This document shows positions 2,477 through 32,819 of a stretch of 64,000 nt of DNA, piece after piece. Below the pieces are notes generated by a model, which was given only the letters and a program-made list of their open reading frames with translations, made no database searches and had not been told where the DNA came from. Within the stretch, counting starts at the first letter, position 1. Each line of letters opens with the position of its first letter. The position numbers were made by a program, and so were the translations under genes. The DNA comes from an uncultured Actinomycetes bacterium (GTDB lineage: Bacteria; Actinomycetota; Thermoleophilia; RBG-16-64-13): contig CAMTXC010000002.1 in NCBI GenBank assembly GCA_947085635.1, positions 140,724 through 204,723 of the forward strand. Reading direction: 5' to 3'.

Positions 2477-4211
2477 CCCACTCCGCCGTGCACCAGAGCA
2501 ACTGGACGGTGGTTCCGCGGTGCGTGACATACGCGTGACGCAGACACCGAAAGGCATCGTCGGCCAGGCCCGCAACCTCGACCGCCTTCGCCAGATCTCC
2601 GAAGTCGCGGTGCGTCACGGCTTCGGGTATCTTTTCGAGAGGCACAACCTGTGGACGGTGCTCGCACTCCGTAAGCGCGAGGTGCCCCCGCAGCCCCCGC
2701 AGTTGGGGCGCCATGTGCGGGAGTTCCTCGAGGAACTCGGCCCCACGTTCGTGAAGTTCGGCCAGTTGTTGAGCACGAGACCCGACCTGGTGCCCCACGA
2801 GGTGCTGGAGCAGCTTGTGCGGCTACAGGACCAGGTGCCGCCCTTCCCGTTCGAGGCCGTGCGCGCAGTCGTCGAGGAGGAACTCGGGCTCACCCTGGAG
2901 CGGTTGTTCGTGAGCTTCGACTCCGTCCCTATCGCCGCCGCTTCCATCGGTCAGGTGCACCGCGCGGAACTCCCCGGCGGGACCCAGGTGGTGGTGAAGG
3001 TGCAGCGGCCCGACGCCGCCCGGCAGATCCAGCGCGACATCGAACTGCTCGAACAGGCTGCGCTTCTGATGAAGGAGCACCTGGGCGAGAGGCTCTTCGC
3101 CGATCCGGTCGCCGTGGTGCAGGAGTTCGCGCGATCGATCTCCGCTGAACTCGACTACATGTTGGAGGCACGCAACGCCGAGCGGTTCGCATCCAACTTT
3201 TCAGGATCTCAGTCGGTGAGTATCCCCAGAGTGCATTGGACGCACTCACGACGCCGCGTCCTCGCTCTCGAGTACACGCACGGCACCACGCTGAACCTCC
3301 TCGACCTGGAGGAGATGGGGTACGCCGAGCGTTCCGCCCTCGCAGAGACCATCGCCGACGCCTGGTTCAAACAGATACTCGAAGACGGCTTCTTCCACGC
3401 GGATCCGCACCCGGCGAACATCATGTACATCGATCACGGCCACATCGCCCTCTTGGATTTCGGCATGGCCGGCGCTCTGTCCAGGGAAGACCTGGAGCAA
3501 GGCACCTTCCTCTTCCTCGATGTGATGAGTCGCGATATTGAGGGCGTCAAGCGCCGGCTGGCGCACCTCGGGGTGCGCTGGCCCCGTGAGAAAGACCAAG
3601 AGGTCACCGCGGCCTTGGAGCTGGGGTTCGCCCGCTACTTCGGCCTCAAGCTTGCCGACCTCGACGCCGGAGCGCTTATCCATGAGGTCTTCGACCTCAT
3701 CTACCAGCTGCATCTGAGCCTGCCTTCCCGCTTCCTGCTTCTGGAGAAGTCGCTGCTCACTCTGGAGGGAGTGGCGACCAACATATATCCAGACCTCAAC
3801 GTCTTCCAGATGGCACGGCCGTACGCACGCCGCCTGCTCGTCCGGCGCTACCGACCCGACGTCGCCCTTGCCGGTGCGGGCCGCTCGCTCGAGGCCTATG
3901 CCAGAGTCCTGCGGGACTATCCTTTCCAGGTACACGACCTGCTTGAGGAGATGCGCGACGGCGAGCTCGAGATCAAGTTCGTCCACATGGGACTGAACGA
4001 CTTCGGGCACAAACTCGACGTTCTTACCAATCGTGTGGTCATCGGCCTCATCACCGCATCCCTCGGGCTGGCCAGCTCTATCGTCGCGGTGTTCGTGACC
4101 GGAGGGCCGCACGTTCTCGGTCTCTCCGTCTGGGGGATACCAGGCTTCTTCGGTGCGTTCGTCTTCGGTGTCTGGCTCATGTGGGCGATCGTGCGCTCCG
4201 GTAGGATGTGA
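2469..4211 (+). CDS. ABC1/UbiB-family atypical protein kinase with C-terminal TM helices
   Basis: Family signature FVKFGQLLSTRPDLVPHEVLEQLVRLQDQVPPFPF, then AAASIGQVHRA and FHADPHPANI. The C-terminus is hydrophobic (VVIGLITASLGLASSIVAVFV). Confidence 0.85.
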   Translation: MSDPLRRAPEQLDGGSAVRDIRVTQTPKGIVGQARNLDRLRQISEVAVRHGFGYLFERHNLWTVLALRKREVPPQPPQLGRHVREFLEELGPTFVKFGQLLSTRPDLVPHEVLEQLVRLQDQVPPFPFEAVRAVVEEELGLTLERLFVSFDSVPIAAASIGQVHRAELPGGTQVVVKVQRPDAARQIQRDIELLEQAALLMKEHLGERLFADPVAVVQEFARSISAELDYMLEARNAERFASNFSGSQSVSIPRVHWTHSRRRVLALEYTHGTTLNLLDLEEMGYAERSALAETIADAWFKQILEDGFFHADPHPANIMYIDHGHIALLDFGMAGALSREDLEQGTFLFLDVMSRDIEGVKRRLAHLGVRWPREKDQEVTAALELGFARYFGLKLADLDAGALIHEVFDLIYQLHLSLPSRFLLLEKSLLTLEGVATNIYPDLNVFQMARPYARRLLVRRYRPDVALAGAGRSLEAYARVLRDYPFQVHDLLEEMRDGELEIKFVHMGLNDFGHKLDVLTNRVVIGLITASLGLASSIVAVFVTGGPHVLGLSVWGIPGFFGAFVFGVWLMWAIVRSGRM

Positions 4212-9011: not shown

Positions 9012-9977
9012 ATGAGCCGTCGGATCCTCGTAGTCGAAGACGACGCCGACCTGCGCGGGATGCTGCAGAGTCTTCTCGAAGAAGACGGTTACGAGGTGAC
9101 GGTGGCCGAGGATGGGCTCGAAGGACTGCGCCAAGTGGTCGACGCCCCTCCCGAACTCATCATCTCCGATGTCCTGATGCCTCGCATGAGCGGACTCGAG
9201 TTTTGCGCCTTGCTGAAGGACAGCCCACAGACCCACCACATCCCGCTCCTCTTCCTCACCTGCGTCGACGATCCGGTGAACGGCTTCGAAGTGGGCGCCG
9301 ACGACTACCTGGTGAAGCCGTTCCGGCAGCGTGAGCTGCTCGCTCGGCTGAGGGCCATCCTCCGTCGCACCGAGTCGCTGCCCCCGCAGATGGCCACCCA
9401 GGGGCTGAGGGGCAATCTGAGCGAACTGAGCATCGCGGAAGTCCTGCAGACCCTTCACGTCGGGGGGGCTTCGGGGTGCCTCTCCGTGGTCACCGCCGAT
9501 GCCTCCGGCCGGGCCCGTCTATGGTTGGAGCAAGGGGAGCTCGTGGCCGCCAAGGTCGAAGGTGCGGAACTCTTCGACGGCGAAGAGGCCTTCTTCTTCG
9601 CTGCGCGCTGGGAGGAGGGGGCGTTTGCGTTCGACTCGGCCAACCGGGCAGAGCATTGGACCGTCCAGAACACCATTGAGAGCCTGCTGCTAGAGGCCGC
9701 CCGCCGGCTGGATGAGGATGACCCAGAGGAGGGTGGACTGTCGCGTGCCACCTCGCGCTCGTGCCGCATCCGAGCCGAGATGCCCGGGCGCGCAGAGCTC
9801 GAGGCGCGGGTGGTCGAGGTGCGGAACCGCCTGAAACTCAAGGCGTTCGAGGCACTCATGGCCGGGCGGCCCCTGCACCACGGCGAGGCTGTTTCCTTCG
9901 TGCAATTCGTAGACCCCGGCGTCGACCTACCGGAGGAGCTCGACGAGTTGATAGAACGCATGCTGAGCCAGGAGTGA
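9012..9977 (+). CDS. Response regulator: N-terminal receiver domain fused to a PATAN/DUF4388 domain
   Basis: REC motifs ILVVEDDADL, IISDVLMP, DDYLVKPF. These are followed by LRGNLSELSIAEVLQTLHVGGASGCLSV...WEEGAFAFD, typical of DUF4388. Confidence 0.75.
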   Translation: MSRRILVVEDDADLRGMLQSLLEEDGYEVTVAEDGLEGLRQVVDAPPELIISDVLMPRMSGLEFCALLKDSPQTHHIPLLFLTCVDDPVNGFEVGADDYLVKPFRQRELLARLRAILRRTESLPPQMATQGLRGNLSELSIAEVLQTLHVGGASGCLSVVTADASGRARLWLEQGELVAAKVEGAELFDGEEAFFFAARWEEGAFAFDSANRAEHWTVQNTIESLLLEAARRLDEDDPEEGGLSRATSRSCRIRAEMPGRAELEARVVEVRNRLKLKAFEALMAGRPLHHGEAVSFVQFVDPGVDLPEELDELIERMLSQE

Positions 9978-18076: not shown

Positions 18077-20695
18077 GTGAAGACGAGTGAACTCCGGAGA
18101 CTTTTCTTGGACTACTTCGCCAGGAACGGTCATCTGTTGGTTCCCAGTGCGTCGCTGGTGCCGTATCGAGATCCGTCGGTGCTGCTCACGACCGCCGGCA
18201 TGCAGCAGTTCAAGCCGTACTTCCTGGGCATGGCGGAGCCGCCCGCACGCCGGCTCACCAGCGTGCAGAAGTGCTTTCGCACCACCGACATCGATCGCGT
18301 CGGGCTCACGGCCAGGCACTGCACCTTCTTCGAGATGCTCGGGAACTTCTCGGTTGGCGACTACTTCAAGGAAGACGCCATCCGGTTCGGCTACGAGCTT
18401 TCCACCACCGAGTTGGGCCTCTCGCCCGACCGCATCTGGGTCTCGGTCTTCGAAGGTGACGATCGCGTGGAGACGGACGAAGAGGCGATGGGGTATTGGG
18501 AGGCCGTGGGAATCCCACGGGCACGGATGGTCGCCTTGCCTCGCAGCGAGAACTTCTGGGGGCCGCCCGGTCCCACGGGCCCTTGCGGGCCCTGCTCGGA
18601 GCTCTACTACGACCGAGGCGCTGCGGTCGGCTGCGGCAATGACGACTGCAAGCCCGGATGCGACTGCGAGCGCTTCCTCGAGTACTGGAACTTGGTGTTC
18701 ATGCAGTACAACCAGGATGAACAAGGGAGGCTCACACCACTGCCGGCCAAGAACATCGACACCGGCATGGGACTGGAGCGCATCGCCGCCCTCATGCAGG
18801 ATGTGGGTTCGGTGTTCCTCACCGATTCGTTCAAGCCCCTCATCGAGTTGGGTGAAGAGATCTCGGGCGTGGAGTTCGGCACATCGGAACGCGCCGACGT
18901 GGTCCTCCGCGTGTTGGCGGACCACTCCAGGGCCATGGCGTTCCTGATCGGCGATGGCGTCCTTCCCGGCAACGAAGGCCGTGGCTATGTTCTGAGACGC
19001 GTGATCAGGCGTGCGGCTCGATTCAGCAGAAGCCTCGACATGAGCCCGCCGTTCCTCGCGCGTTTCGCGGAGCGCACCATCGACCTGCTCTCGGAGGCCT
19101 ACCCGGAATTGTACGCACGGCAGGACACCATCCTTCGCATCGTCGATTCCGAGGAGGAGCGCTTCAATCGCACCTTAGATCAAGGGCTGGTGCTTCTCGA
19201 CGAAGAGATCCGCAAGGCCGAGGAGAAGGGGACAGCCGTCTTCCCAGGAACGGCCGCCTTCGTGTTGCACGACACCTACGGATTCCCGATCGAGGTGACC
19301 AGAGAGATCGTCGAAGAACGCGGGATGGAACTCGACCGAGCGGGTTTCGACAGCGCCATGAGTACGCAACGCGAGCGCGCGCGGGCCACGAGTCGCGGCT
19401 CGGACTCCGTGCAGGAAGCCATCGTGACCTTGGCCAGGGCGGACGGACACCCCACCGAGTTCGTCGGCTACGCTCAAGACGAGGTGTTCACCGTCATCGA
19501 GCGGTTGCAGAAACTCGAGAACGGGCAGGTGATCCTCAGCCTCCGGGAAAGCCCGTTCTACGCCGAAGGGGGCGGGCAGGCGGCCGACATCGGCTGGATC
19601 GAGACCGATTCGGGACGTGCTGAAGTCCGCGACGTCCAACAACACGGCTCCGTGCAGATCGTGATCGCGTACGTCGTCGAAGGTGTTCTCCAGGCCGGTG
19701 TGAGGGCCAAGGCGGTCATCTCCTCGGTACACCGGCACTCCGTCGCGGCGAACCATACGGGCACGCACCTCCTTCACTACGGTCTGCGCACCATGCTGGG
19801 AAAGGACGTGACCCAGGCGGGTTCCGCCGTACGCGCGGACAAGTTTCGGTTCGATTTCGCGTATCACGAGCCCCTGGGGCCGCAGCGCCTGCGCGAACTG
19901 GAGGAGATCGTCAATCGCAAGATCGTAGAGAACCATCCGGTGCGGGCGTTCACCACAAGTCTGGACCACGCGAAAGACCTCGGCGCCGTCGCACTCTTCG
20001 GCGAGAAGTACGGCGACTTCGTGCGGGTCGTCGAGGTCGATGACTTCAGTCGGGAACTGTGTGGCGGCACGCACGTGCACGCGACGAGTGAGATCGGCAT
20101 CTTCAAGATCGTCTCCGAGGGCAGCGTGGGAGCGAACGTCCGGCGGATCGAAGCGCTCACCGGCCGAAGGGCCGTCGAGTTCTATCGCAGGCGCGATACC
20201 TCGGTGTCGGAAGCGGCTCATCTCCTCTCTGTACAGGAGGACGCCCTGGTACCGGCCATACGTAAGCTGGAGGCCCGAGTGGGGAGCCTCGAGCGAGACA
20301 TCAAGGCGCTGATGACCGGCAACGCAGCGGATCTGGCATCTGAGATCCTCAACACCTCCGTGACTGTGGGGGAGACGCGCGTGGCTGTCGCGCCCGTGGC
20401 GGCCCGGGACACCGACCACCTGCTCTCCCTCCTCGACCAAGTCCGAGACCGGCTTGCGCCGGCTGTAGTCGTTCTCGCCGCCGTTTCCGACGGCAAGGTC
20501 CTTGCTGTGGCCGGGGTCTCCACCGGTGTGAAAGGGTTTCACGCAGGCGATCTGATCAAAGAGCTCAGCGCCGTGATCGGGGGCGGGGGCGGGGGCAGCC
20601 CCAGTCTCGGCCGGGGCGGCGGCGGTGATCCGGCTCGACTCGACGCGGGTCTGGACGTCATCCGAGACGCTCTGGTGGCCCGTCTGGGAGCCTGA
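18077..20695 (+). CDS. alaS: Alanine--tRNA ligase
   Basis: FLDYFARNGHLLVPSASLVP, FFEMLGNFSVGDYFK, WGPPGPTGPCGPCSELYYD, editing-domain HTGTHLL...CGGTHV, C-terminal DHHA1-like region. GTG start with GGGAG upstream. Confidence 0.93.
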   Translation: MKTSELRRLFLDYFARNGHLLVPSASLVPYRDPSVLLTTAGMQQFKPYFLGMAEPPARRLTSVQKCFRTTDIDRVGLTARHCTFFEMLGNFSVGDYFKEDAIRFGYELSTTELGLSPDRIWVSVFEGDDRVETDEEAMGYWEAVGIPRARMVALPRSENFWGPPGPTGPCGPCSELYYDRGAAVGCGNDDCKPGCDCERFLEYWNLVFMQYNQDEQGRLTPLPAKNIDTGMGLERIAALMQDVGSVFLTDSFKPLIELGEEISGVEFGTSERADVVLRVLADHSRAMAFLIGDGVLPGNEGRGYVLRRVIRRAARFSRSLDMSPPFLARFAERTIDLLSEAYPELYARQDTILRIVDSEEERFNRTLDQGLVLLDEEIRKAEEKGTAVFPGTAAFVLHDTYGFPIEVTREIVEERGMELDRAGFDSAMSTQRERARATSRGSDSVQEAIVTLARADGHPTEFVGYAQDEVFTVIERLQKLENGQVILSLRESPFYAEGGGQAADIGWIETDSGRAEVRDVQQHGSVQIVIAYVVEGVLQAGVRAKAVISSVHRHSVAANHTGTHLLHYGLRTMLGKDVTQAGSAVRADKFRFDFAYHEPLGPQRLRELEEIVNRKIVENHPVRAFTTSLDHAKDLGAVALFGEKYGDFVRVVEVDDFSRELCGGTHVHATSEIGIFKIVSEGSVGANVRRIEALTGRRAVEFYRRRDTSVSEAAHLLSVQEDALVPAIRKLEARVGSLERDIKALMTGNAADLASEILNTSVTVGETRVAVAPVAARDTDHLLSLLDQVRDRLAPAVVVLAAVSDGKVLAVAGVSTGVKGFHAGDLIKELSAVIGGGGGGSPSLGRGGGGDPARLDAGLDVIRDALVARLGA

Positions 20696-20699
20696 CCGG

Positions 20700-21110
20700 G
20701 TGCGTGCGCTGGGAGTCGACGTAGGGGCGGCCCGAACGGGACTTGCCCTCTCCGATCCCCTCGGGATCACGTGCAGACCCCTCACGATCCTCAGGATCAG
20801 AGACCGGGATGCGCTGGCCGCTGCCGTAGCCGATGTGGCCGAGCGAGAGGGCGCATCGACGATCGTCGTCGGTCTGCCCCGACCACTCTCAGGCGGACTG
20901 AACCAACAGATGCGTGTCGTTGTCGCCTTCATCGACCGGTTGCGGGCCCTCACGTCGCGGCCGGTGACCACGTGGGATGAGCGGTTCACATCGAAACTGG
21001 CCAAACAGAATCGCAGACCCGGGGAACCCGTGGATGATGTGGCGGCCTGCCACCTTCTTCAGAGTTACCTCGACCACTCACCCCTGGTTCGACCGGAGGC
21101 TGCAGAGTGA
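20700..21110 (+). CDS. ruvX: Putative pre-16S rRNA nuclease / Holliday junction resolvase-like YqgF (RuvX)
   Basis: VRALGVDVGAARTGLALSD ... VVGLPRPLSG ... DERFTS. GTG 20700 lies just after the alaS stop; the track ORF start at 20625 overlaps alaS. Confidence 0.8.
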   Translation: MRALGVDVGAARTGLALSDPLGITCRPLTILRIRDRDALAAAVADVAEREGASTIVVGLPRPLSGGLNQQMRVVVAFIDRLRALTSRPVTTWDERFTSKLAKQNRRPGEPVDDVAACHLLQSYLDHSPLVRPEAAE

Positions 21111-22165
21111 GCGCGCCTGCCGGTGTCGCGCGTCGCCGTAGACGACTCCTCGTGGCTGCTGCCTTCCTCCTGCTCGTTCTCGCGGGCGGGGCGGTGGTGG
21201 TCGCGTCCGATTTCGTGGAACCCTTCGGCGCGCCGACATCCACCACCCCGCCTTCCGAGACCCGCACCATCATCATCCCGACCGGCTTGACGGCCTCCGA
21301 TGTAGCCAAGATCCTCGAACGCGAAGGCGTCATCGCGTCGGCCACCGCGTTCCTCGTAGAGCTTCGCCTCAAGGGAGCGGCCGAACGCATACAACCGGGC
21401 ACCTACCAGTTCAAGACCGGACAGGACAGCGGCTCGATCATCGCGCACCTCGAGAGCGGGCCTTCTCCTTCTGACATACGGCTGACCCTGCCCGAGGGAT
21501 TGTCGATCGACCAGGCGGCCGCGCGTCTTGACGGCTTCGAAGCGATCACCGCGGACGATTACGAGGATCTCTCAGGCGATCCCGACAAGTTCACGCTTCC
21601 CAAGGTTGGCGGCACCATAGTGAGCCCCCCCGACCTCGAAGGGCTACTCTTTCCCAGCACCTATTTCGTCGAACTCGGTATCGATGCGGCAGACCTGATC
21701 CAGCTCCAGATGAACACATTCGAGAGCAAGACGGCCGGCCTCGAGTGGGAACGGGCGGGCGAGCTTGGGGTCGATCCATACGAGGTGGTGATCATCGCTT
21801 CGATGATCGAGAAGGAAGCGCGGGTACCCGAAGAGCGCGCGCGCGTCGCGGCTGTCATCTACAATCGACTTGCGCGCAACATGGCGCTCGGCATCGACGC
21901 CACGACCCGGTTCGCGCTCAAGAAGTGGACCGAACCACTCACCAAGAGCGACCTCGCCGTTGATTCACCATATAATACCCGCTTGGTCACCGGCCTTCCG
22001 CCCGGTCCCATCGCGAGCCCTGGCATCCAGGCTCTGGAAGCGGCTCTCTCCCCGGCGGATGTGGATTTCCTCTACTACGTGCTCATCGACGAGGAGGGAC
22101 ACCACTTCTTCACGGCCTCATACGACGAGTTCCTGCGGGCCAAGGCCCAGGCTCCCGGCCGATGA
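21107..22165 (+). CDS. mltG: Endolytic murein transglycosylase MltG (YceG family)
   Basis: N-terminal TM, LysM-like region, and YceG core (EGLLFPSTYF, ASMIEKEA, VIYNRL, LGIDATT, SPYNTR, GLPPGPIASPG). GTGA overlap with ruvX. Confidence 0.88.
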   Translation: MSAPAGVARRRRRLLVAAAFLLLVLAGGAVVVASDFVEPFGAPTSTTPPSETRTIIIPTGLTASDVAKILEREGVIASATAFLVELRLKGAAERIQPGTYQFKTGQDSGSIIAHLESGPSPSDIRLTLPEGLSIDQAAARLDGFEAITADDYEDLSGDPDKFTLPKVGGTIVSPPDLEGLLFPSTYFVELGIDAADLIQLQMNTFESKTAGLEWERAGELGVDPYEVVIIASMIEKEARVPEERARVAAVIYNRLARNMALGIDATTRFALKKWTEPLTKSDLAVDSPYNTRLVTGLPPGPIASPGIQALEAALSPADVDFLYYVLIDEEGHHFFTASYDEFLRAKAQAPGR

Positions 22166-22246
22166 AGCCGCGAGGCCGCCATAGTGCGACCAAAGCAGGA
22201 GTGCGGGCCATGCACCACGTCGATACTCTAGAGCCGACCGTTCGCG

Positions 22247-23131
22247 ATGGCGACGGCAAGAACACGAGCCGCGGGGTGTGATCGGTTGGAAGTAAGGGCG
22301 AGCACAGGGGTAGTCTGCATTCTTGGTCATCCGGTACGCCATTCACGATCGCCGGCGATGCACAACGCCGCCTTCGCCGAAGAGGGCCTCGACCTGGTCT
22401 ACGTGGCCTTCGATGTACCCGAAGCAGGCCTGCCTTCCGCCATCGACGGCCTCCGCAGCCTGGGGTTCGTGGGCGCCAATATCACGGTGCCGCACAAGGA
22501 GAGTGTGGTCCCACTGCTCGACGAGACCGACGAACTCGCCACCAAGATCGGCGCCGTGAACACGATAGTGGCTGATCGCGGGCGGCTGCGCGGCTACAAC
22601 ACAGACGCGGAGGGCTTCCTTCGCGCGCTGGAGCGAGGGTGGGGGAGAGGGCCGGAAGGCGCGCGCTGCCTCGTGCTGGGGGCCGGCGGCGCGGCGCGCG
22701 CGATCGTCGCGGCGCTCGTGCACGCACGGGCGGCCGAGGTCGTGGTGCATAATCGCACCGCGGCGCGCGCCCGTAGACTCTGCTCTGACGCGGTCCTCTG
22801 GTCCAGTGTCCCGGTGCGCGCGATCGAGACCGAGGGGCTCGGGCAGGTCGTCTCGGAGACCGACTTGATCGTGAACGCCACCTCCGTAGGCCTCGACGGT
22901 ACGTTCAAGGCAGTACCGCTTCCTGTCGATATGGTGAAGGAGGGCCACGTTGTGATGGACGTCGTGTATTCTGATTCGATGACACCGCTGTTGGAAGCAG
23001 CCCACGGGAGGGGTGCGACAGTGATCGAAGGCACAGAGATGCTGGTGCAACAAGCCTGCCTCGCCTACAAATTGTGGACAGGGAGGATCGCTCCCGTGCA
23101 TCTGTTCCGAAACAGGGCTTCCAGCGACTGA
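22247..23131 (+). CDS. aroE: Shikimate dehydrogenase
   Basis: ILGHPVRHSRSPAMHNAAF, NITVPHK, GAVNT, GYNTD, LGAGGAARA. The start is uncertain (ATG 22247 or TTG 22286). Confidence 0.85.
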   Translation: MATARTRAAGCDRLEVRASTGVVCILGHPVRHSRSPAMHNAAFAEEGLDLVYVAFDVPEAGLPSAIDGLRSLGFVGANITVPHKESVVPLLDETDELATKIGAVNTIVADRGRLRGYNTDAEGFLRALERGWGRGPEGARCLVLGAGGAARAIVAALVHARAAEVVVHNRTAARARRLCSDAVLWSSVPVRAIETEGLGQVVSETDLIVNATSVGLDGTFKAVPLPVDMVKEGHVVMDVVYSDSMTPLLEAAHGRGATVIEGTEMLVQQACLAYKLWTGRIAPVHLFRNRASSD

Positions 23132-24852
23132 TGCAGCTGCCGAGCGAAGAGATACCCCTGCGCAAGCCGGGGAAGAAGCGCACCGGCGAGATCCTCGTGG
23201 AGATGGGGCTGCTCACACCCCAGCAGCTCGAAGAGGCACTCGAGGAACAGAAGACCTCGCATCTGCGCATCGGCGAAGTGCTCGTAGCGAAGGGGTGGAT
23301 CACGCACACCGAGCTGACCGAGGCCCTTGCCCGTCGTCTGGGTGTGCGGTATCTCGATCTCTCGACCACCAAGGTCGAGCATGCCGCGGCGAACCTGATC
23401 ACCGAGAAGGACGCCAGGCGCTACGCGGCGATCCCCGTGTCGTACCTCAACGACCACACCTTGCTGGTGGCCATGGTCGATCCGGCCAACATCTTCGCGA
23501 TCGACGACCTGCGCATCCTCACCGGGTGCGACGTCGAGCCGGCGATCGCCACCGAAGAAGACATCTTCGGGCAGATCAGCAAGATGCGGCGACTCGAGGA
23601 CAAGGTCGGTCAGAACCTCGAGGACCAGCCCGAATCGATGGAACTCAGCCCCGACGAAGTACGGGACATCAGGGAGCAACTTGATGAGGCTCCCATCGTC
23701 AAGTTGGTCAACAGCATCATGGCTCAAGCGGCCGAGGACGGCGCGTCCGACATCCACTTCGAGCCGCAGGCCAAGGAGATGGTCATCCGCTTCCGCAACG
23801 ACGGGGTGCTGCACGAAGTCATGTCAGTGCCGCGGCGCATGCAATCCGGAGTGCTCTCGCGCATCAAGATCATGGCCGACCTCGACATCGCCGAGCGCCG
23901 CGTGCCTCAGGATGGTCGTATCAGCCTCATGGTCGGAGGAAAGCCCATCGACATGCGGGTGGCCTCGCTGCCGACCGTGTACGGTGAGAAGATAGTGATG
24001 CGACTTCTGGATAGGTCCAACGTCATGCTCCGCCTGCAGGACCTCGGCTTCTCGGAGAAGAGCCTCGCCCGATTCCGCAAGTCGTTCACGAAGCCGTACG
24101 GAGCGATGCTGGTAACGGGTCCGACGGGCTCGGGCAAATCCACAACGCTGTATGCTACGTTGAACATACTGAACACGCCGGAAAAGAACATCATCACAGT
24201 CGAGGATCCTGTGGAGTACCGATTGACCGGCATCAACCAGGTACAGACGAATCTGCGGGCGGGGCTGACCTTCCCTGTCGCCCTCAAGTCGATCCTGCGC
24301 TGCGACCCGGACATCGTCATGATCGGCGAGATCCGGGACAAGGAGACCGCTCAGATAGCCGTGGAGTCCGCTCTCACCGGTCACCTGGTCCTTTCGACTC
24401 TGCACACCAATGACGCTCCCGGCGCCTTGTCACGTCTCACCGAGATGGGCATCGAGCCGTTCCTCACAGCTTCCGCCGTCGATTGCGTTCTCGCTCAGCG
24501 CCTCGCACGCAAGCTGTGTGAAGGGTGCAAGGAACCCTACAAGCCCACGCAGGAAATGCTCCGTCGGAACGACTTCCCCATGGAGGCGTGTGAAGACTGG
24601 GAGAACGTCACCCTCTACAAGCCGGTAGGATGTCCGCGCTGCAACGGAACCGGCTACAAGGGGCGCCTCGGCATCTACGAGGTCATGCTGGTCACCGAGG
24701 CCATCGAGAGACTCACTGTCGAAAGGAAGAGCGCTGACGAGATCAGTCGTGTCGCGCAGGCAGAGGGGATGAAGAGCCTCCGGGAGGACGGTATCGAAAA
24801 AGTGCTGCAGGGCCGTACAGCGATCGAGGAGATCGCCCGTGTCATTGTGTGA
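23131..24852 (+). CDS. pilB: Type IV pilus assembly ATPase PilB (GspE family) with an MshEN-like N-terminus
   Basis: ATG 23131 overlaps the aroE stop (TGATG). N-terminal T2SSE_N repeats, Walker A GPTGSGKSTT, Asp/His boxes, and the tetracysteine CEGC...CPRCNGTG. Confidence 0.9.
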   Translation: MQLPSEEIPLRKPGKKRTGEILVEMGLLTPQQLEEALEEQKTSHLRIGEVLVAKGWITHTELTEALARRLGVRYLDLSTTKVEHAAANLITEKDARRYAAIPVSYLNDHTLLVAMVDPANIFAIDDLRILTGCDVEPAIATEEDIFGQISKMRRLEDKVGQNLEDQPESMELSPDEVRDIREQLDEAPIVKLVNSIMAQAAEDGASDIHFEPQAKEMVIRFRNDGVLHEVMSVPRRMQSGVLSRIKIMADLDIAERRVPQDGRISLMVGGKPIDMRVASLPTVYGEKIVMRLLDRSNVMLRLQDLGFSEKSLARFRKSFTKPYGAMLVTGPTGSGKSTTLYATLNILNTPEKNIITVEDPVEYRLTGINQVQTNLRAGLTFPVALKSILRCDPDIVMIGEIRDKETAQIAVESALTGHLVLSTLHTNDAPGALSRLTEMGIEPFLTASAVDCVLAQRLARKLCEGCKEPYKPTQEMLRRNDFPMEACEDWENVTLYKPVGCPRCNGTGYKGRLGIYEVMLVTEAIERLTVERKSADEISRVAQAEGMKSLREDGIEKVLQGRTAIEEIARVIV

Positions 24853-24911
24853 GCAGACGAGCCTCGGGGCACCAGGACAAGGCCTGCTATTGATCTACCT
24901 GTCCCAGCGTC

Positions 24912-25988
24912 ATGGAGGTGACCGTGGAACTCGTTGAGGTCTTGAAGGAGGTGCTCGAGAGGGGAGCCTCCGACCTCCACATCTCAGTGGGGGTGCCGCC
25001 GACTCTTAGGGTCAGTGGCAGGCTTATACATCTTGATGCCCCGAGGGTCACCACGAACGACGCGCGTTCCCTCATCTACAGCATCCTTACGCAAGATCAG
25101 CGGCAACAACTCGAGAACGACTGGGAGCTTGACTTCTCGTACTCGGTGCCCGGCCGAGCGCGCTTCCGGGTCAACGCGTATTTCCAGCGCAACAGCCTCG
25201 GAGCCGCTTTTCGTCTCATCCCGGTGGACATCAAGTCCATCGACGAGCTGGGGTTGCCGCCGGTTCTGCACGAACTAGCGGCCAAGCCGCGCGGTTTCGT
25301 ACTCGTCACTGGGCCCACGGGCTCGGGCAAGTCCACGACCCTGGCGGCCATGATCGACGCTATCAACAAAGACCGCCACGATCACATCATGACCATCGAG
25401 GATCCGATCGAGTTCCTTCACCGCCACCAGAACTGCATCGTAAACCAACGCGAGGTGGGAACCGACACGAAGTCCTTCGCCAAGGCCCTGAAGTCTGTGC
25501 TGCGGCAAGATCCCGACATCATCCTCGTGGGGGAGCTCCGCGATCTCGAGACGATCACGACCGCTCTGACCGCCGCGGAGACGGGGCACCTGGTCTTCGC
25601 GACGCTTCACACGCAAGACGCACCTCAGACCATCGATCGCCTCATAGACGTGTTCCCGCCGCATCAGCAAGAGCAGATACGTGTGCAGATCGCCGCGACC
25701 ATCCAGGGCATCGTCACGCAGCAATTGCTTGAGCGGCGCGACGGCAAGGGCCGGATCGCCGCCTGCGAGGTCTTGATCCCGACGCCTGCAGTTCGGAACC
25801 TCATCAGGGAAGGGAAGACGCATCAGATCTACACCACCATGCAGACGGGCACCAAGCACGGCATGATGACCATGGACTCCACCTTGGCCGATCTTGTGAG
25901 GCGAGGCTTGATCACAAAGGAACTGGCTGATCGTCGATCGTCGAATCCGGAAGACCTCAAGCGACTTCTAGTATCTGGGGCGGCGTGA
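24912..25988 (+). CDS. pilT: Type IV pilus retraction ATPase PilT
   Basis: GASDLHISVG, Walker A GPTGSGKSTT, HIMTIEDPIEF, ILVGELRD, TGHLVFATLHT, AIRNLIREGK-type motif (AVRNLIREGKTHQI). Confidence 0.9.
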   Translation: MEVTVELVEVLKEVLERGASDLHISVGVPPTLRVSGRLIHLDAPRVTTNDARSLIYSILTQDQRQQLENDWELDFSYSVPGRARFRVNAYFQRNSLGAAFRLIPVDIKSIDELGLPPVLHELAAKPRGFVLVTGPTGSGKSTTLAAMIDAINKDRHDHIMTIEDPIEFLHRHQNCIVNQREVGTDTKSFAKALKSVLRQDPDIILVGELRDLETITTALTAAETGHLVFATLHTQDAPQTIDRLIDVFPPHQQEQIRVQIAATIQGIVTQQLLERRDGKGRIAACEVLIPTPAVRNLIREGKTHQIYTTMQTGTKHGMMTMDSTLADLVRRGLITKELADRRSSNPEDLKRLLVSGAA

Positions 25989-26041
25989 CGCTCGGTTCGA
26001 AGAGCGTTCGCGGGTAGCGCTGTGGGAAAGGAAGGACCACC

Positions 26042-27256
26042 ATGACCACCTTCACATACACGGCCAAGCCGTCAGGCGGCAGCCAGATGGGCGGCGAGAT
26101 ACAGGGGGATTCGAAGGCCGCGGTGGCCGCCGAACTCCGGCGGCGTGGCCTCACCGTGATGTCCCTTGAGGAGAAAAGGGGCCTCCCCAACATCAACGAG
26201 CTGCTCGAGGGAATGAGCAGTGTCAAACTCCGCGACAAGGTCATCTTCTCTCGACAGTTCGCCACCATGATCAACGCGGGTCTTGCGCTGCTCCGGGCGC
26301 TCTTCATCCTGGAAGAGCAGACGGAGAACCCGCGCTTGCGGAAGATCATCCAGGCCGTCCGCCAAGATGTCGAGGCGGGTATGCCCCTCTCGGATTCCTT
26401 CGAGAAGCACCCGATCGCGTTCGACAGACTCTACGTCAGTATGGTCCGGGCGGGCGAGGTCGGCGGGGTGCTCGACCTGACCCTCGAACGCCTGGCGACC
26501 CAGCTCGAGAAAGACGACAGCCTCCGAAGATCGGTCAAGTCGGCCATGACGTACCCGATTCTCATCTTCGTATTCGCGATCGTCGTGCTGTTCGCGCTCA
26601 TTATCTTCGTGATACCTGTGTTCGCCGGCATGTACGACGGATTGGGCGGGCAATTGCCGCTTCTCACCCGGATCATGGTGGGAGCCAGCGACTTCATGCG
26701 CTCGTTCTGGTTCATCGTGTTCCCAGCCGCCTTCCTCCTCTTCTACGGGCTCAAGCGGCTCAAGAACACCAAGACGGGCACCGAGACCTGGGACAAGATC
26801 AAGCTGCGCCTACCCATGAAATTGGGCCCGATCGTGCAGAAAATCGCCGTTTCCCGCTTCAGCCGGACGCTGGCGACGCTGGTGAGTTCCGGTGTGCCGA
26901 TCTTGCAGGCCATCGATATCACTGGAAAGACCTCGGGCAACACGGTCATCGAGTACGCGATGGACGCAGTCAGGGAGAACATCAAGAGCGGAGATTCGAT
27001 CTCACGTCCCCTTGAGAAGATAAAGGTGTTTCCACCGATGGTCACTCAAATGATCGCCATCGGGGAGGAGACAGGTGCTCTCGACACCATGCTCCACAAG
27101 ATCGCCGACTTCTACGAGGACGAGGTCGATTCCGCGGTCAAGTCACTGACGTCGATCATCGAGCCGATCATGATGATCTTCATCGGTGGCATCGTGGGTC
27201 TCGTCGTCGTCTCTATGTACCTGCCGATCTTCAACCTGTTCCAGCTGGTGGAGTAG
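26042..27256 (+). CDS. pilC: Type IV pilus platform protein PilC (GspF family)
   Basis: Two T2SSF repeats (FSRQFATMINAGLALLRAL; FSRTLATLVSSGVPILQAI), three TM segments, 404 aa. GGAAGGA lies upstream of the ATG. Confidence 0.9.
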   Translation: MTTFTYTAKPSGGSQMGGEIQGDSKAAVAAELRRRGLTVMSLEEKRGLPNINELLEGMSSVKLRDKVIFSRQFATMINAGLALLRALFILEEQTENPRLRKIIQAVRQDVEAGMPLSDSFEKHPIAFDRLYVSMVRAGEVGGVLDLTLERLATQLEKDDSLRRSVKSAMTYPILIFVFAIVVLFALIIFVIPVFAGMYDGLGGQLPLLTRIMVGASDFMRSFWFIVFPAAFLLFYGLKRLKNTKTGTETWDKIKLRLPMKLGPIVQKIAVSRFSRTLATLVSSGVPILQAIDITGKTSGNTVIEYAMDAVRENIKSGDSISRPLEKIKVFPPMVTQMIAIGEETGALDTMLHKIADFYEDEVDSAVKSLTSIIEPIMMIFIGGIVGLVVVSMYLPIFNLFQLVE

Positions 27257-27296
27257 GCGCGGACTATCCGACGCCGAAGGCGCACGGGCCGACGGG

Positions 27297-28148
27297 ATGT
27301 ACATGTCTAGATCTTCTAGCTTGGAAGACGATATACAGGCAGCCGCTTCTCTCCGCACGCCGGTTAGGCTGGGAGGCAAAGAACAGCCCGCCGGCGCCCA
27401 ACCGCCACCGTTCGCGGCCAACGAAACCCTTCTGGCGGCGTACCGCCGCGGAGATTTGAGCGCGCTCGATCGACTTCTCGAGAAGAACGAGCCGTTGCTG
27501 CATCATGCTCTGAAGCGGTTCTCGTACTCGTCGGAGCCTTACGAAGATCTGTTCCAGGTCGCACGCCTCGGCTTCATGAAGGCGGTCCACAGGTACGACG
27601 AGACCCGCGGCATCGCCTTCTCCACGTACGCCATCGCAATCGCCGACGGCGAGATCCGTCATCATCTTCGAGACGCCCTGCTGGTACGTCAGCCGCGCTG
27701 GGCGCGAGGCCTCTACACGCAGATCGTCCAAGCGCAGACGGAGTTCTTCCGGGAGCACGGCCGCTCACCGACGATCGCGGAGGTGGCAGACCTCGTCAAC
27801 ATCCAACAGAAGGGTATCCTGGAGATCATCAGGGCACAAGCGAGCCTTAACGTGCATTCCCTAGACGAGCCCTTTGACGGACCCGATGCCCGAGCACCCG
27901 ACAGGACCCTGGTGCGATCCATCCGCGCAGAGTCGTTCTCGCTGCCCATCGAGGATCGTATCCTGTTGTACGAAGCGCTGGGCGCACTCTCCGAACTTCA
28001 GAAGAAGATTATCTACCTGCTGTTCTTCGGCGATCTGACGCAGCAGGAGGTCGCAGACGAGATCGGCCTTACGCAACGCACCGTGTCGCGCGAGCACGTG
28101 AAGGCCTTGGACCGGCTCAAGGCGATCCTGAGCAAGCGCATAATCTGA
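27297..28148 (+). CDS. Group-3 sigma-70 family sigma factor immediately downstream of pilC
   Basis: Region 2 YEDLFQVARLGFMKAVHRYD, FSTYAIAIADGEIRHHLRD; region 3; region 4 LSELQKKIIYLLFFGDLTQQEVADEIGLTQRTVSRE. I chose ATG 27297; the track ORF start at 27186 overlaps pilC. Confidence 0.8.
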   Translation: MYMSRSSSLEDDIQAAASLRTPVRLGGKEQPAGAQPPPFAANETLLAAYRRGDLSALDRLLEKNEPLLHHALKRFSYSSEPYEDLFQVARLGFMKAVHRYDETRGIAFSTYAIAIADGEIRHHLRDALLVRQPRWARGLYTQIVQAQTEFFREHGRSPTIAEVADLVNIQQKGILEIIRAQASLNVHSLDEPFDGPDARAPDRTLVRSIRAESFSLPIEDRILLYEALGALSELQKKIIYLLFFGDLTQQEVADEIGLTQRTVSREHVKALDRLKAILSKRII

Positions 28149-30362: not shown

Positions 30363-30641
30363 TCAGAGTTCGTCTTCGGCCAACCCGCGGGAACTGAGGA
30401 TGCCGCTGAGCTTCTCGACGTCGCCTTCGACGAAGAGGCTCTTGCCGCTCGAATGCTTGTCTCTCAGCCGGCGAACCATCTCTGCGCGAAGGATGTCGAG
30501 TTTCGCGTGGATGATCCGGCGGGCCTTTGAGACCTCTCGCTCCTCCTCCGCCAGTTGCTCGGCGAGGAGCTTGATCTCGTCATCGCCCTTCGACTGTATG
30601 TCGATGAGCAAATCGAACGATGAGGTGTCGTAGTCGTTCAT
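30363..30641 (-). CDS. Small coiled-coil protein with a single RsiG-type c-di-GMP-binding motif (candidate anti-sigma factor)
   Basis: 92 aa from ATG 30641. EEEREVSKARRIIHAKLD matches E-x3-S-x2-R-x3-Q-x3-D with Q replaced by H. The sequence is predicted helical throughout. I rejected the track start at 30677. Confidence 0.55.
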   Translation of the reverse strand: MNDYDTSSFDLLIDIQSKGDDEIKLLAEQLAEEEREVSKARRIIHAKLDILRAEMVRRLRDKHSSGKSLFVEGDVEKLSGILSSRGLAEDEL

Positions 30642-31252: not shown

Positions 31253-31588
31253 TCAACTCGCCTGCTGCACGTCGCTCAGACCCTCCAGAAGCAGGCTGTC
31301 GAGGGTCCGATCTATCGTCACTGGGGAGGTGATGGCAGTGAGCTCGGCACTCTCGAAGGCGAAGTGGCCCTCCTCGAGCGCGAGGAGACCCCAGAAGGCC
31401 TCAAGGGCCGAATCGACTCCCACCTGCTCCGCGTGGATGACTCGTCCCCGGGCTATGACGATCATGCCCTCGACCTCGGTCGCATTGGCCGAGCGGCGGA
31501 GTGCCACCTCTCCCGTCCTCTTCCCATGCACGAGTACCTGCAGGATCTCAGGAAGAGCGAAGTCCCTCAGGTCGCCGACAAAGGCCAT
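31253..31588 (-). CDS. Stand-alone PATAN/DUF4388 domain protein
   Basis: GDLRDFALPEILQVLVHGKRTGEVAL...IVIARGRVIHAE...ALEAFWGLLALEEGHFAFE. ATG 31588 is preceded by AGGAGGG. It is transcribed divergently from mglBA. Confidence 0.7.
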   Translation of the reverse strand: MAFVGDLRDFALPEILQVLVHGKRTGEVALRRSANATEVEGMIVIARGRVIHAEQVGVDSALEAFWGLLALEEGHFAFESAELTAITSPVTIDRTLDSLLLEGLSDVQQAS

Positions 31589-31628
31589 CGCCCTCCTATG
31601 CCTCGTCATCCAACGATGATCGCGGAGG

Positions 31629-31656
31629 ATTCTACCAACGCGGACCCGCGTAGCAA
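31629..31656 (-). promoter_or_regulatory. Candidate promoter for the PATAN gene
   Basis: The minus strand reads TTGCTA, 16 nt, TGgTAGAAT (extended -10). Confidence 0.4.
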
Positions 31657-31679
31657 AGGCCACGGGGCCTTGTTATACT
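31651..31679 (+). promoter_or_regulatory. Candidate promoter for mglB-mglA
   Basis: TAGCAA, 17 nt, TGtTATACT (extended -10). Its -35 hexamer is the reverse complement of the PATAN promoter -35. Confidence 0.35.
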
Positions 31680-31735
31680 TCTGCCCGTGCTTCCGGCCGT
31701 ATCGTAGCGGCCCAGCTGCGCACAAGGAGGTGCTC

Positions 31736-32230
31736 TTGGCTCGCCGCAAGGGGCTGGTAATCAACGATCGGCAGATGCAGCTCGTGGATGACATCCTCGA
31801 TAAGCTGCGCCAGGTTTCGGGGTCACGATTCATCGCCCTTGTGTCCACGAGTGGCCAACCGATCACCACATCGTCGGTGGAAGCTCACCCCGACACCCTG
31901 TCCCTCGCCTCCTTGGCCGCCGGCTCGTTCGCCGCGACGCAGCAACTTGCCGAGGTGCTGCACGAGCGCGAGTTCACCCTGTTGTTCCACGAGGGCCGCG
32001 AGAGCAATCTGCACGTGGCGCAGGTCACGGATCAAGTCCTGCTGGTGATCACGTTCGGACGGGAGACTCAGGTGGGCAAGGTGCGGCTCTACACGAACCG
32101 GGCGGTGGAGGTGCTCCGGCCTGTGTTCGATTCGAACGATGAGGACGACCAGACCAACCTCATGATCGACGACGACTACTCGCTGCTCGCGGACGAAGCC
32201 ATAGACGACCTGTTCGCGGACATGGAGTGA
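31736..32230 (+). CDS. mglB: Roadblock/LC7-family protein MglB (GTPase-activating partner of MglA)
   Basis: Similar by eye to Myxococcus MglB (SLASLAAGSFAA..., LFHEGRESNLHV, LLVITF, VRLY), including the acidic C-terminal tail ending DDLFADME. TTG 31736 lies 5 nt after AAGGAGG; an alternative ATG is at 31775. Confidence 0.8.
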   Translation: MARRKGLVINDRQMQLVDDILDKLRQVSGSRFIALVSTSGQPITTSSVEAHPDTLSLASLAAGSFAATQQLAEVLHEREFTLLFHEGRESNLHVAQVTDQVLLVITFGRETQVGKVRLYTNRAVEVLRPVFDSNDEDDQTNLMIDDDYSLLADEAIDDLFADME

Positions 32231-32234
32231 CTTC

Positions 32235-32819
32235 GTGCCCCTGATCAACTTCGCCGCACGTGAGATCAACTACAAGATCGTCTACTACGGATGCGGTCTG
32301 TGCGGCAAGACCACGAACATCCAGTACATCCACAAGAAGGTGAACCCGAACGCCCGCGGCAAGCTTGTCAGTATCGCCACCGAAGAGGAGCGCACCCTCT
32401 ACTTCGACTTCCTTCCGCTTTCCCTCGGAACGGTCAAGGGCATGAAGACGCGTTTCCACCTCTACACCGTGCCGGGCCAGTCCTACTACAACGCTTCGCG
32501 CCGACTCGTGTTGCAGGGAGTCGACGGCATCGTGATGGTTGCCGACAGTCAGATCACTCGGCTGGACGAGAATGTCGAGAGCTATCTGAATCTCTGGGAC
32601 AACCTCCTCGACCAAGGCGACGACTTGTCCCGCCTGGGTTTCGTGATCCAGCTCAACAAGCGGGATCTCACGGACATCTTCTCGGCCGAGGATCTCAAGG
32701 AGCTCCTCAACCACACGAACTCGCCCGTGACGGAAGCGTGCGCACTCACCGGCCAAGGAGTCTTCGAGACCCTCAAGACTGTGTGCAAGCAGGTCATCGC
32801 CAAGACCGGTCAGACCTAG
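32235..32819 (+). CDS. mglA: Ras-like small GTPase MglA
   Basis: Collinear by eye with Myxococcus MglA: REINYKIVYYGCGLCGKTTN, ERTLYFDFLPLSLG, RFHLYTVPGQ (Thr in place of the Ras Asp), NKRDL. GTG start 4 nt after mglB, with GGAG upstream. Confidence 0.88.
   Translation: MPLINFAAREINYKIVYYGCGLCGKTTNIQYIHKKVNPNARGKLVSIATEEERTLYFDFLPLSLGTVKGMKTRFHLYTVPGQSYYNASRRLVLQGVDGIVMVADSQITRLDENVESYLNLWDNLLDQGDDLSRLGFVIQLNKRDLTDIFSAEDLKELLNHTNSPVTEACALTGQGVFETLKTVCKQVIAKTGQT

Follow-up and report, generated by a model that had tools for sequence, protein, structure and literature searches.

MshE-type c-di-GMP receptor motifs with a lineage-specific variation at the N-terminus of a Thermoleophilia PilB

The pilB gene at nucleotides 23131-24852 of the 64-kb window analyzed here (the whole stretch of DNA under study, taken from a Thermoleophilia metagenome-assembled genome (MAG) of 2.09 Mb and 75% completeness, from an uncultured soil actinobacterium) encodes a type IV pilus extension ATPase, and its N-terminus is a genuine member of the MshE family of receptor modules for cyclic di-GMP (c-di-GMP), a membership supported by every test available. 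We consider it probable, at roughly 65%, that the N-terminal subdomains of PilB constitute a c-di-GMP receptor fused to the pilus motor and that two off-consensus residues, T18 and R69, shift its affinity. A preliminary description of this DNA had proposed that the extension ATPase itself senses c-di-GMP. The membership in the MshEN_N family stands, since the curated profile, the ungapped alignment to MshE, the predicted fold, the conservation among homologues and the c-di-GMP enzymes in the genome all indicate it; c-di-GMP binding, its affinity and its effect on pilus extension are what we infer from this membership.

Translation placed the tandem 24-residue MshE motifs and their 5-residue spacer exactly at nucleotides 23179-23337 (PilB residues 17-69), as the preliminary description had reported, and its two deviations were correct: Thr for Leu at position 2 of copy 1 and Arg for Gln at position 24 of copy 2. 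Copy 2 carries further conservative departures that had not been listed, Ile for Leu at position 2 and Trp at position 11. The gene and its parts are as follows.

23131..24852, + strand: pilB, type IV pilus extension ATPase, 573 aa (Pfam T2SSE, TIGR02538); the ATG overlaps the aroE stop codon
23179..23250, + strand: MshEN motif I, R17-Q40, RTGEILVEMGLLTPQQLEEALEEQ, with T18 in place of the consensus Leu (translation, NF053729, MshE alignment, pattern scan)
23251..23265, + strand: 5-residue spacer K41-L45, KTSHL (translation, MshE alignment)
23266..23337, + strand: MshEN motif II, R46-R69, RIGEVLVAKGWITHTELTEALARR, with R69 in place of the consensus Gln (translation, NF053729, MshE alignment, pattern scan)
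23338..23598, + strand: MshEN_C (T2SSE_N) subdomain, residues 70-156, including D117-P118 (Pfam PF05157, 65.6 bits)
23674..24840, + strand: T2SSE ATPase core (N2D and C-terminal domain), residues 182-570 (Pfam)

The NCBIfam model NF053729 (c-di-GMP_motif), a 53-position profile named 'cyclic di-GMP-binding domain, MshE-related', matched PilB residues 19-68 over profile positions 3-52 with 68.5 bits against a cut-off of 38 (E 3.1e-19), and the same motif scored 72.8 bits in a six-frame search of the genome. Using phmmer against PDB sequences, the motif region was aligned without gaps to residues 7-69 of Vibrio cholerae MshE (5HTL), with PilB R17/T18/G19 corresponding to MshE R9/L10/G11 and PilB R46/I47/G48 to MshE R38/L39/G40; the two motifs and their spacer fall on MshE 9-61. 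Profile and alignment, which had been suggested as checks in the preliminary description, both bear out the motif. A relaxed 24-residue pattern matched only twice in the six frames of the 64-kb window, at the two motif copies and with the correct spacing, while 50 shuffled windows yielded 0.12 single matches per window and no tandem match. The glycines at motif positions 3 (G19 and G48) and 10 (G26 and G55) are all intact, and 19 of the 22 specified motif positions are retained or conservatively replaced.

The predicted fold agrees with this assignment. In an AlphaFold2 model of PilB residues 1-175, built on an alignment of 54 sequences from related loci, the predicted local distance difference test (pLDDT) score was 91-97 across residues 20-150; helices were predicted at residues 18-24, 30-43, 47-53 and 59-70, and an alpha/beta subdomain comes after them, at pLDDT >90. 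This predicted arrangement matches the layout of MshEN, a four-helix bundle followed by the T2SSE_N alpha/beta subdomain. The top Foldseek matches were chains B and A of 5HTL (E 6e-12, TM-score 0.78 on the target, root-mean-square deviation 2.8 A, 35-36% identity), and next came the c-di-GMP-bound structures of the GSPII-B domain of Thermus thermophilus PilF. In the alignment to PilF GSPII-B, D117-P118 of PilB falls on PilF D266-P267; this Asp corresponds to D108 of MshE and makes a contact to the amino group of guanine (PMC11731258). The Pfam match named 'MshEN' (PF05157) was rejected as evidence for the motif, since it covers residues 70-156 only. PF05157 leaves out the 53 residues that form the binding motif, so binders and non-binders are indistinguishable by Pfam annotation alone.

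To survey the orthologues, as the preliminary description had recommended, we used 120 homologues from a search of 5.8 billion proteins (N-domain identity 53-100%), in which the key positions of both motifs proved near-invariant: Q40 and G48 are present in all 120, G19 in 119, L62 in 118, R17 and R46 in 114 each, and L66 in 113. The two deviations are themselves widely shared. Position 18 is Thr in 88 homologues, Leu in 18, Ile in 10 and Val in 2, and position 69 is Arg in 114, Lys in 5 and Gln in 1. The nearest loci belong to Thermoleophilia/Actinomycetota MAGs, the two closest being 96-98% identical. Codons could be read in register in 10 of the 11 nearest genomes, the remaining locus (L009) having an N-terminal indel; the Thr codon at position 18 is ACC, ACG or ACA, and the Arg codon at position 69 is CGT, CGA, CGG, CGC or AGA. 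The codons vary synonymously while the residues are fixed, which indicates purifying selection on T18 and R69. Elsewhere in the class, a sister clade of PilB has the same terminal Arg (…ALAERLGV) together with Ile or Leu at position 2, and paralogous PilB/GspE-type ATPases of the class carry fully canonical RLG…Q/RLG…Q motifs. As judged from these sequences, RTG…R is a lineage-specific form that has been maintained while the pocket is otherwise intact, and the conservation of T18 and R69 points to a tuned pocket rather than a decayed one. When homologues with T18 were compared with those with L/I/V18, Lys or Arg was commoner at positions 41, 54 and 59 in the Thr group. These differences are inseparable from shared ancestry, and no inference of changes compensating for T18 was drawn from them.

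Beyond the N-domain, the protein is a full ATPase of the PilB type. Pfam T2SSE matched residues 182-570 with 475 bits, and the translation retains an intact Walker A (GPTGSGKS), Walker B (DPDIVMIGEIRD), His box (GHLVLSTLHTND) and Asp box as well as a tetracysteine CxxC...CxxC zinc site. The top-scoring NCBIfam model was the PilB equivalog TIGR02538, with 657 bits under a cut-off of 675.65, and the GspE model ranked behind it (610 bits, cut-off 630). Since the equivalog threshold was missed, the protein is named PilB from its best match and context; a prepilin peptidase is encoded on the same contig. We took the ATG at 23131 as the start codon because it overlaps the stop codon of the shikimate dehydrogenase gene aroE (TGATG) and because the nearest relatives align from there. 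A GTG at 23074, which would add 19 residues and overlap aroE, was dropped since the relatives align from the ATG; the motif is the same either way.

Based on the characterized members of the family, we propose that the two motifs of the N-terminal bundle would hold one c-di-GMP molecule between them like a clamp. In this arrangement, backbone amides (residues 18-20 and 47-49) would make the contacts to the phosphates and to the Hoogsteen edges of the guanines, and each base would be stacked by a motif-initial Arg, R17 or R46. The remaining base faces would be covered by two clusters, L33/L37/I47 and T18/L62/L66, and the ribose-phosphate would be contacted by Q40 and R69. With ligand bound, the N-terminal ring of the hexamer may become more stable or take up a new orientation, and this change would tune pilus extension post-translationally; V. 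cholerae MshE, PilB of Myxococcus xanthus and of Chloracidobacterium thermophilum and PilF of T. thermophilus serve as the models. T18 and R69, conserved in the clade, would probably reset the affinity without abolishing binding.

How far the two substitutions would disturb such a pocket can be estimated from MshE and PilF. In MshE, Leu10/Leu54/Leu58 form a triangular cluster stacking on one guanine and L25/L29/L39 form the other guanine-stacking cluster; the motif-terminal Gln residues Q32 and Q61 make hydrogen bonds to a ribose hydroxyl and a phosphate oxygen; and bulky replacement of G11 or G40 abolishes binding, G18 and G47 being the other motif glycines (Wang et al., 2016, PMC5013675). 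PilB keeps the first cluster as L33/L37/I47. Several points weigh against c-di-GMP sensing by PilB. The second cluster of PilB is T18/L62/L66, in which Thr substitutes a stacking Leu, and the L10A mutation of MshE raised the dissociation constant 36-fold and weakened complementation in vivo (PMC5013675). Even the relaxed search pattern published by Wang et al., 2016 ([RKPN]hGxxhhxx[GAS]hhxxxxhxxxhxx[QNKRYWST]) does not admit Thr to its hydrophobic set at position 2; only 10 of the 120 homologues pass this pattern, and 82 would if Thr were allowed. R69 removes one of the two Gln residues that hydrogen-bond the ribose-phosphate, and in PilF GSPII-B the Q190E mutation reduced affinity ~80-fold and the double Gln-to-Glu mutation abolished binding; the GSPII-A domain of the same protein bears the motif without binding (PMC11731258). 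At the output step, c-di-GMP binding left the ATPase rate of Clostridium perfringens PilB2 unchanged.

Other observations fit a pocket that is altered and still functional. Motif II of PilB passes the relaxed pattern, which permits Arg at the last position, and motif I fails at T18 alone. In PilF GSPII-B, non-consensus Lys and Leu at position 1 raise affinity, and backbone amides at motif positions 2 and 3 provide the contacts to phosphate and N7 (PMC11731258). Since backbone amides make these contacts, T18 would keep them, while offering a smaller stacking surface than Leu, and R69 can still donate hydrogen bonds to phosphate. The sign of the effect is not readable from homology, because c-di-GMP activates MshE but does not alter the ATPase rate of PilB2.

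Alternatively, the N-domain may serve a structural role or the docking of a partner, its useful affinity for c-di-GMP having been lost, a reading we regard as rather unlikely. T18 and R69 would then be kept for another reason, for example a PilZ-, PATAN- or PilM-type partner, and control by c-di-GMP would be indirect, like that of Xanthomonas and Pseudomonas PilB with PilZ and FimX. The two ligand-contact positions off consensus are in line with this, PilF GSPII-A provides a precedent for a motif-bearing yet silent domain, and the genome encodes PATAN proteins and an MglA/MglB pair, both near pilB and at other places. X. citri PilB N-domain–PilZ complexes also match the predicted fold well (7LKM, E ~3e-9), but X. 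citri PilB is only 19% identical to our protein, compared with 35-36% for MshE. The described non-binders, XpsE and GSPII-A, are changed at many key residues, glycines included, whereas PilB keeps 19 of 22 specified positions, conservative replacements counted, and both glycines at each of positions 3 and 10. The NF053729 score far above the curated cut-off and the single, marginal PilZ match in the genome, which lies inside a 695-aa frame, also argue against a mere docking module.

The same two substitutions, changed clade-wide and kept under selection, could in principle reflect a preference for another cyclic dinucleotide such as 3'3'-cGAMP or c-di-AMP over c-di-GMP. This is very improbable, given that the guanine-reading parts are retained (the amides of G19/E20 and G48/E49, and D117 aligned with the guanine-reading Asp) and that GGDEF enzymes are abundant in the genome; no synthase of another dinucleotide turned up, although none was searched for. 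Chance resemblance of a helical, Leu/Glu-rich N-terminus to the MshE motif, for which the low complexity of the EEALEEQ segment and nothing further speaks, is refuted by the profile E-value of 3e-19, the lack of tandem matches in the 50 shuffled windows, the match to the 5HTL fold and the class-wide conservation. A c-di-GMP receptor fused to the extension ATPase is our preferred reading.

The genome contains at least eight GGDEF and at least two EAL matches over cut-off, so the organism makes and degrades c-di-GMP. The receptor motif is common in the class: NF053729 exceeded its cut-off in 148 of 201 sampled genomes, and 163 of 201 had a match at E <=0.001. More than 10,000 MshEN proteins have been reported, and Rubrobacter xylanophilus, Cellulomonas flavigena, Arthrobacter and Eggerthella were listed as actinobacteria with MshEN as the sole known protein receptor (Wang et al., 2016, PMC5013675, Supplementary Table 5). 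Among PilB-type motors, those established to bind c-di-GMP directly are MshE, PilB of M. xanthus and of C. thermophilum, PilF of T. thermophilus and PilB2 of C. perfringens. The papers on the anti-sigma factor RsiG cite MshE only as a Vibrio analogy and report no MshEN motif on actinobacterial PilB. Earlier publications already cover the class of receptor, the fusion with PilB and the occurrence in actinobacteria, and the sole unusual feature of our PilB is the pair of lineage-specific changes, Leu to Thr and Gln to Arg, at two ligand-contact positions.

No second PilB/GspE-type ATPase was found in the 75% complete assembly. Genomes of the same genus encode one with canonical RLG...Q/RLG...Q motifs (L075:1324-3150 in G168, 608 aa; G100:C21; L087 in G188). 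The homologues also included longer, PilF-like proteins of 884-995 aa in which MshEN is repeated three times (P0031, P0032 and P0077). Two of these, P0031 and P0077, had appeared as PilB–PATAN fusions in precomputed Pfam annotation (PF14332); re-scanning showed PilF-like proteins with three MshEN repeats and no fusion, the 'DUF4388' match spanning only profile positions ~46-84, a helical insertion resembling MshEN_N.

PilB can be compared with several known systems. Like V. cholerae MshE (5HTL; PMC5013675), its top fold match, PilB has the 24+5+24 layout at the N-terminus of a PilB/GspE-type ATPase and aligns without gaps at 35-36% identity over ~138 residues, keeping the four glycines, both motif-initial Arg residues, the terminal Gln of motif I and the LxxxL pairs. 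It differs in T18 for L10, I47 for L39, W56 for F48 and R69 for Q61, and its host is a monoderm actinobacterium in which the motor belongs to a pilB-pilT-pilC set, not to an MSHA system. T. thermophilus PilF GSPII-B (8PDK; Neissner et al., 2024, PMC11731258) is likewise an MshEN-type c-di-GMP-binding domain on a pilus ATPase, conserves the Asp of the C-terminal subdomain (D117 in PilB) and shows that off-consensus contact residues, Lys and Leu for the initial Arg, may retain or raise affinity. PilF has three tandem GSPII domains and PilB a single one; the deviations of PilF are at position 1, those of PilB at T18 (motif I, position 2) and R69 (motif II, position 24); and the orienting Arg of PilF, R268, is replaced by A119 in PilB.

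M. xanthus and C. thermophilum PilB and C. perfringens PilB2 (PMC6957770, PMC5544727, PMC11656802) share with our protein the single N-terminal MshEN on a type IVa ATPase, and PilB2 is a precedent for c-di-GMP binding in a Gram-positive; their motifs, in contrast, are canonical R/K-L-G ... Q. Since the outputs of these proteins vary from exopolysaccharide signaling to protein stability and to no effect on the ATPase rate, the output of our PilB cannot be read from homology. The actinobacterial MshEN list of Wang et al., 2016 (Supplementary Table 5) already recognized MshEN as a candidate c-di-GMP receptor in actinobacteria, but it includes no Thermoleophilia, and the RTG...R variant is not described in the text consulted.

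The pilB gene belongs to an alaS-ruvX-mltG-aroE-pilB-pilT-pilC(-sigma) array at 18077-28148 of the window, the order of which is conserved across Thermoleophilia loci (L001-L027); the sigma factor gene trailing pilC is present in L001-L009 and L011. The features downstream of pilB that form its context are listed below.

24912..25988, + strand: pilT, retraction ATPase, 358 aa (Pfam T2SSE)
26042..27256, + strand: pilC, platform protein (Pfam T2SSF, two repeats)
27297..28148, + strand: group-3 sigma factor gene directly after pilC, SigB/F/G-like and not clearly WhiG (NCBIfam scores)
30363..30641, - strand: RsiG-like protein, 92 aa, with a single ExxxSxxRxxxHxxxD signature (sequence)

The preliminary description had regarded direct sensing by PilB as an input added to a transcriptional one through RsiG. 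An RsiG-like gene with the signature does exist, 5.5 kb from pilB, and its 92-aa product has no match in NCBIfam, but a link between RsiG and pilus transcription is not established. The sigma factor encoded next to the pilus genes is best matched by SigB/SigF/SigG-like models (180 bits, below cut-off), and its candidacy as a WhiG partner of the RsiG-like protein is unsupported, the FliA/WhiG model giving 83 bits against a cut-off of 189.6. Because this sigma factor is SigB/F/G-like and pilB is embedded in the array and translationally coupled to the housekeeping gene aroE, control of motor-gene transcription by RsiG is not established either.

Other potential signaling genes lie in the window. 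A response regulator with REC and PATAN (DUF4388) domains, without a helical insertion, is encoded at 9012-9977; PATAN response regulators bind PilB in cyanobacteria. At 31364-32819, 4 kb from the pilus motor genes, a Roadblock/LC7 (MglB-like) gene is followed by a gene for a small Ras/Arf-like (MglA-like) GTPase.

Elsewhere in the genome, two further PATAN/DUF4388 proteins, of 406 aa (L069:1333-2553; contig C6 of genome G000, motif at 77393-77557) and 284 aa (L070:1303-2157; contig C25 of G000, motif at 4024-4176), carry helical insertions that score 32 and 24 bits with the MshE motif model, below its cut-off of 38. An example of such an insertion is PIGERLVRAGKLRGSELQAVLAEQ-RASEKPR-LLGALLKELGLVSQEALEQYVREQ. 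Each of the two proteins is encoded ~2.5 kb from a GGDEF gene, and no link between the PATAN insertion and MshEN was found in the papers searched. On the resemblance of these insertions, the 406- and 284-aa proteins are possible candidates for c-di-GMP-binding regulators.

With PilB, a Thermoleophilia lineage joins the long list of pilus motors with an MshE-type receptor. As the receptor class, the fusion to PilB and the actinobacterial occurrence have been published, this gain is incremental; the natural, selection-maintained variant, Leu to Thr and Gln to Arg, would be a useful test case for predicting affinity from sequence. A more speculative idea, which we hold to be doubtful, is that the clade-wide pair of T18 and R69 defines a distinct MshEN sub-type whose affinity or specificity has been reset, and that the c-di-GMP threshold of PilB differs from that of the RsiG-type anti-sigma factor. 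A bolder version would make the conserved pocket Thr a target of a Ser/Thr kinase that gates ligand binding, for which we have no evidence of phosphorylation and sought none. If the sub-type exists, one pilus in early-branching actinobacteria would be under two-threshold, possibly opposite-sign control. If PilB binds c-di-GMP as we propose, the second messenger would act on pili in these bacteria at the motor and perhaps also via RsiG.

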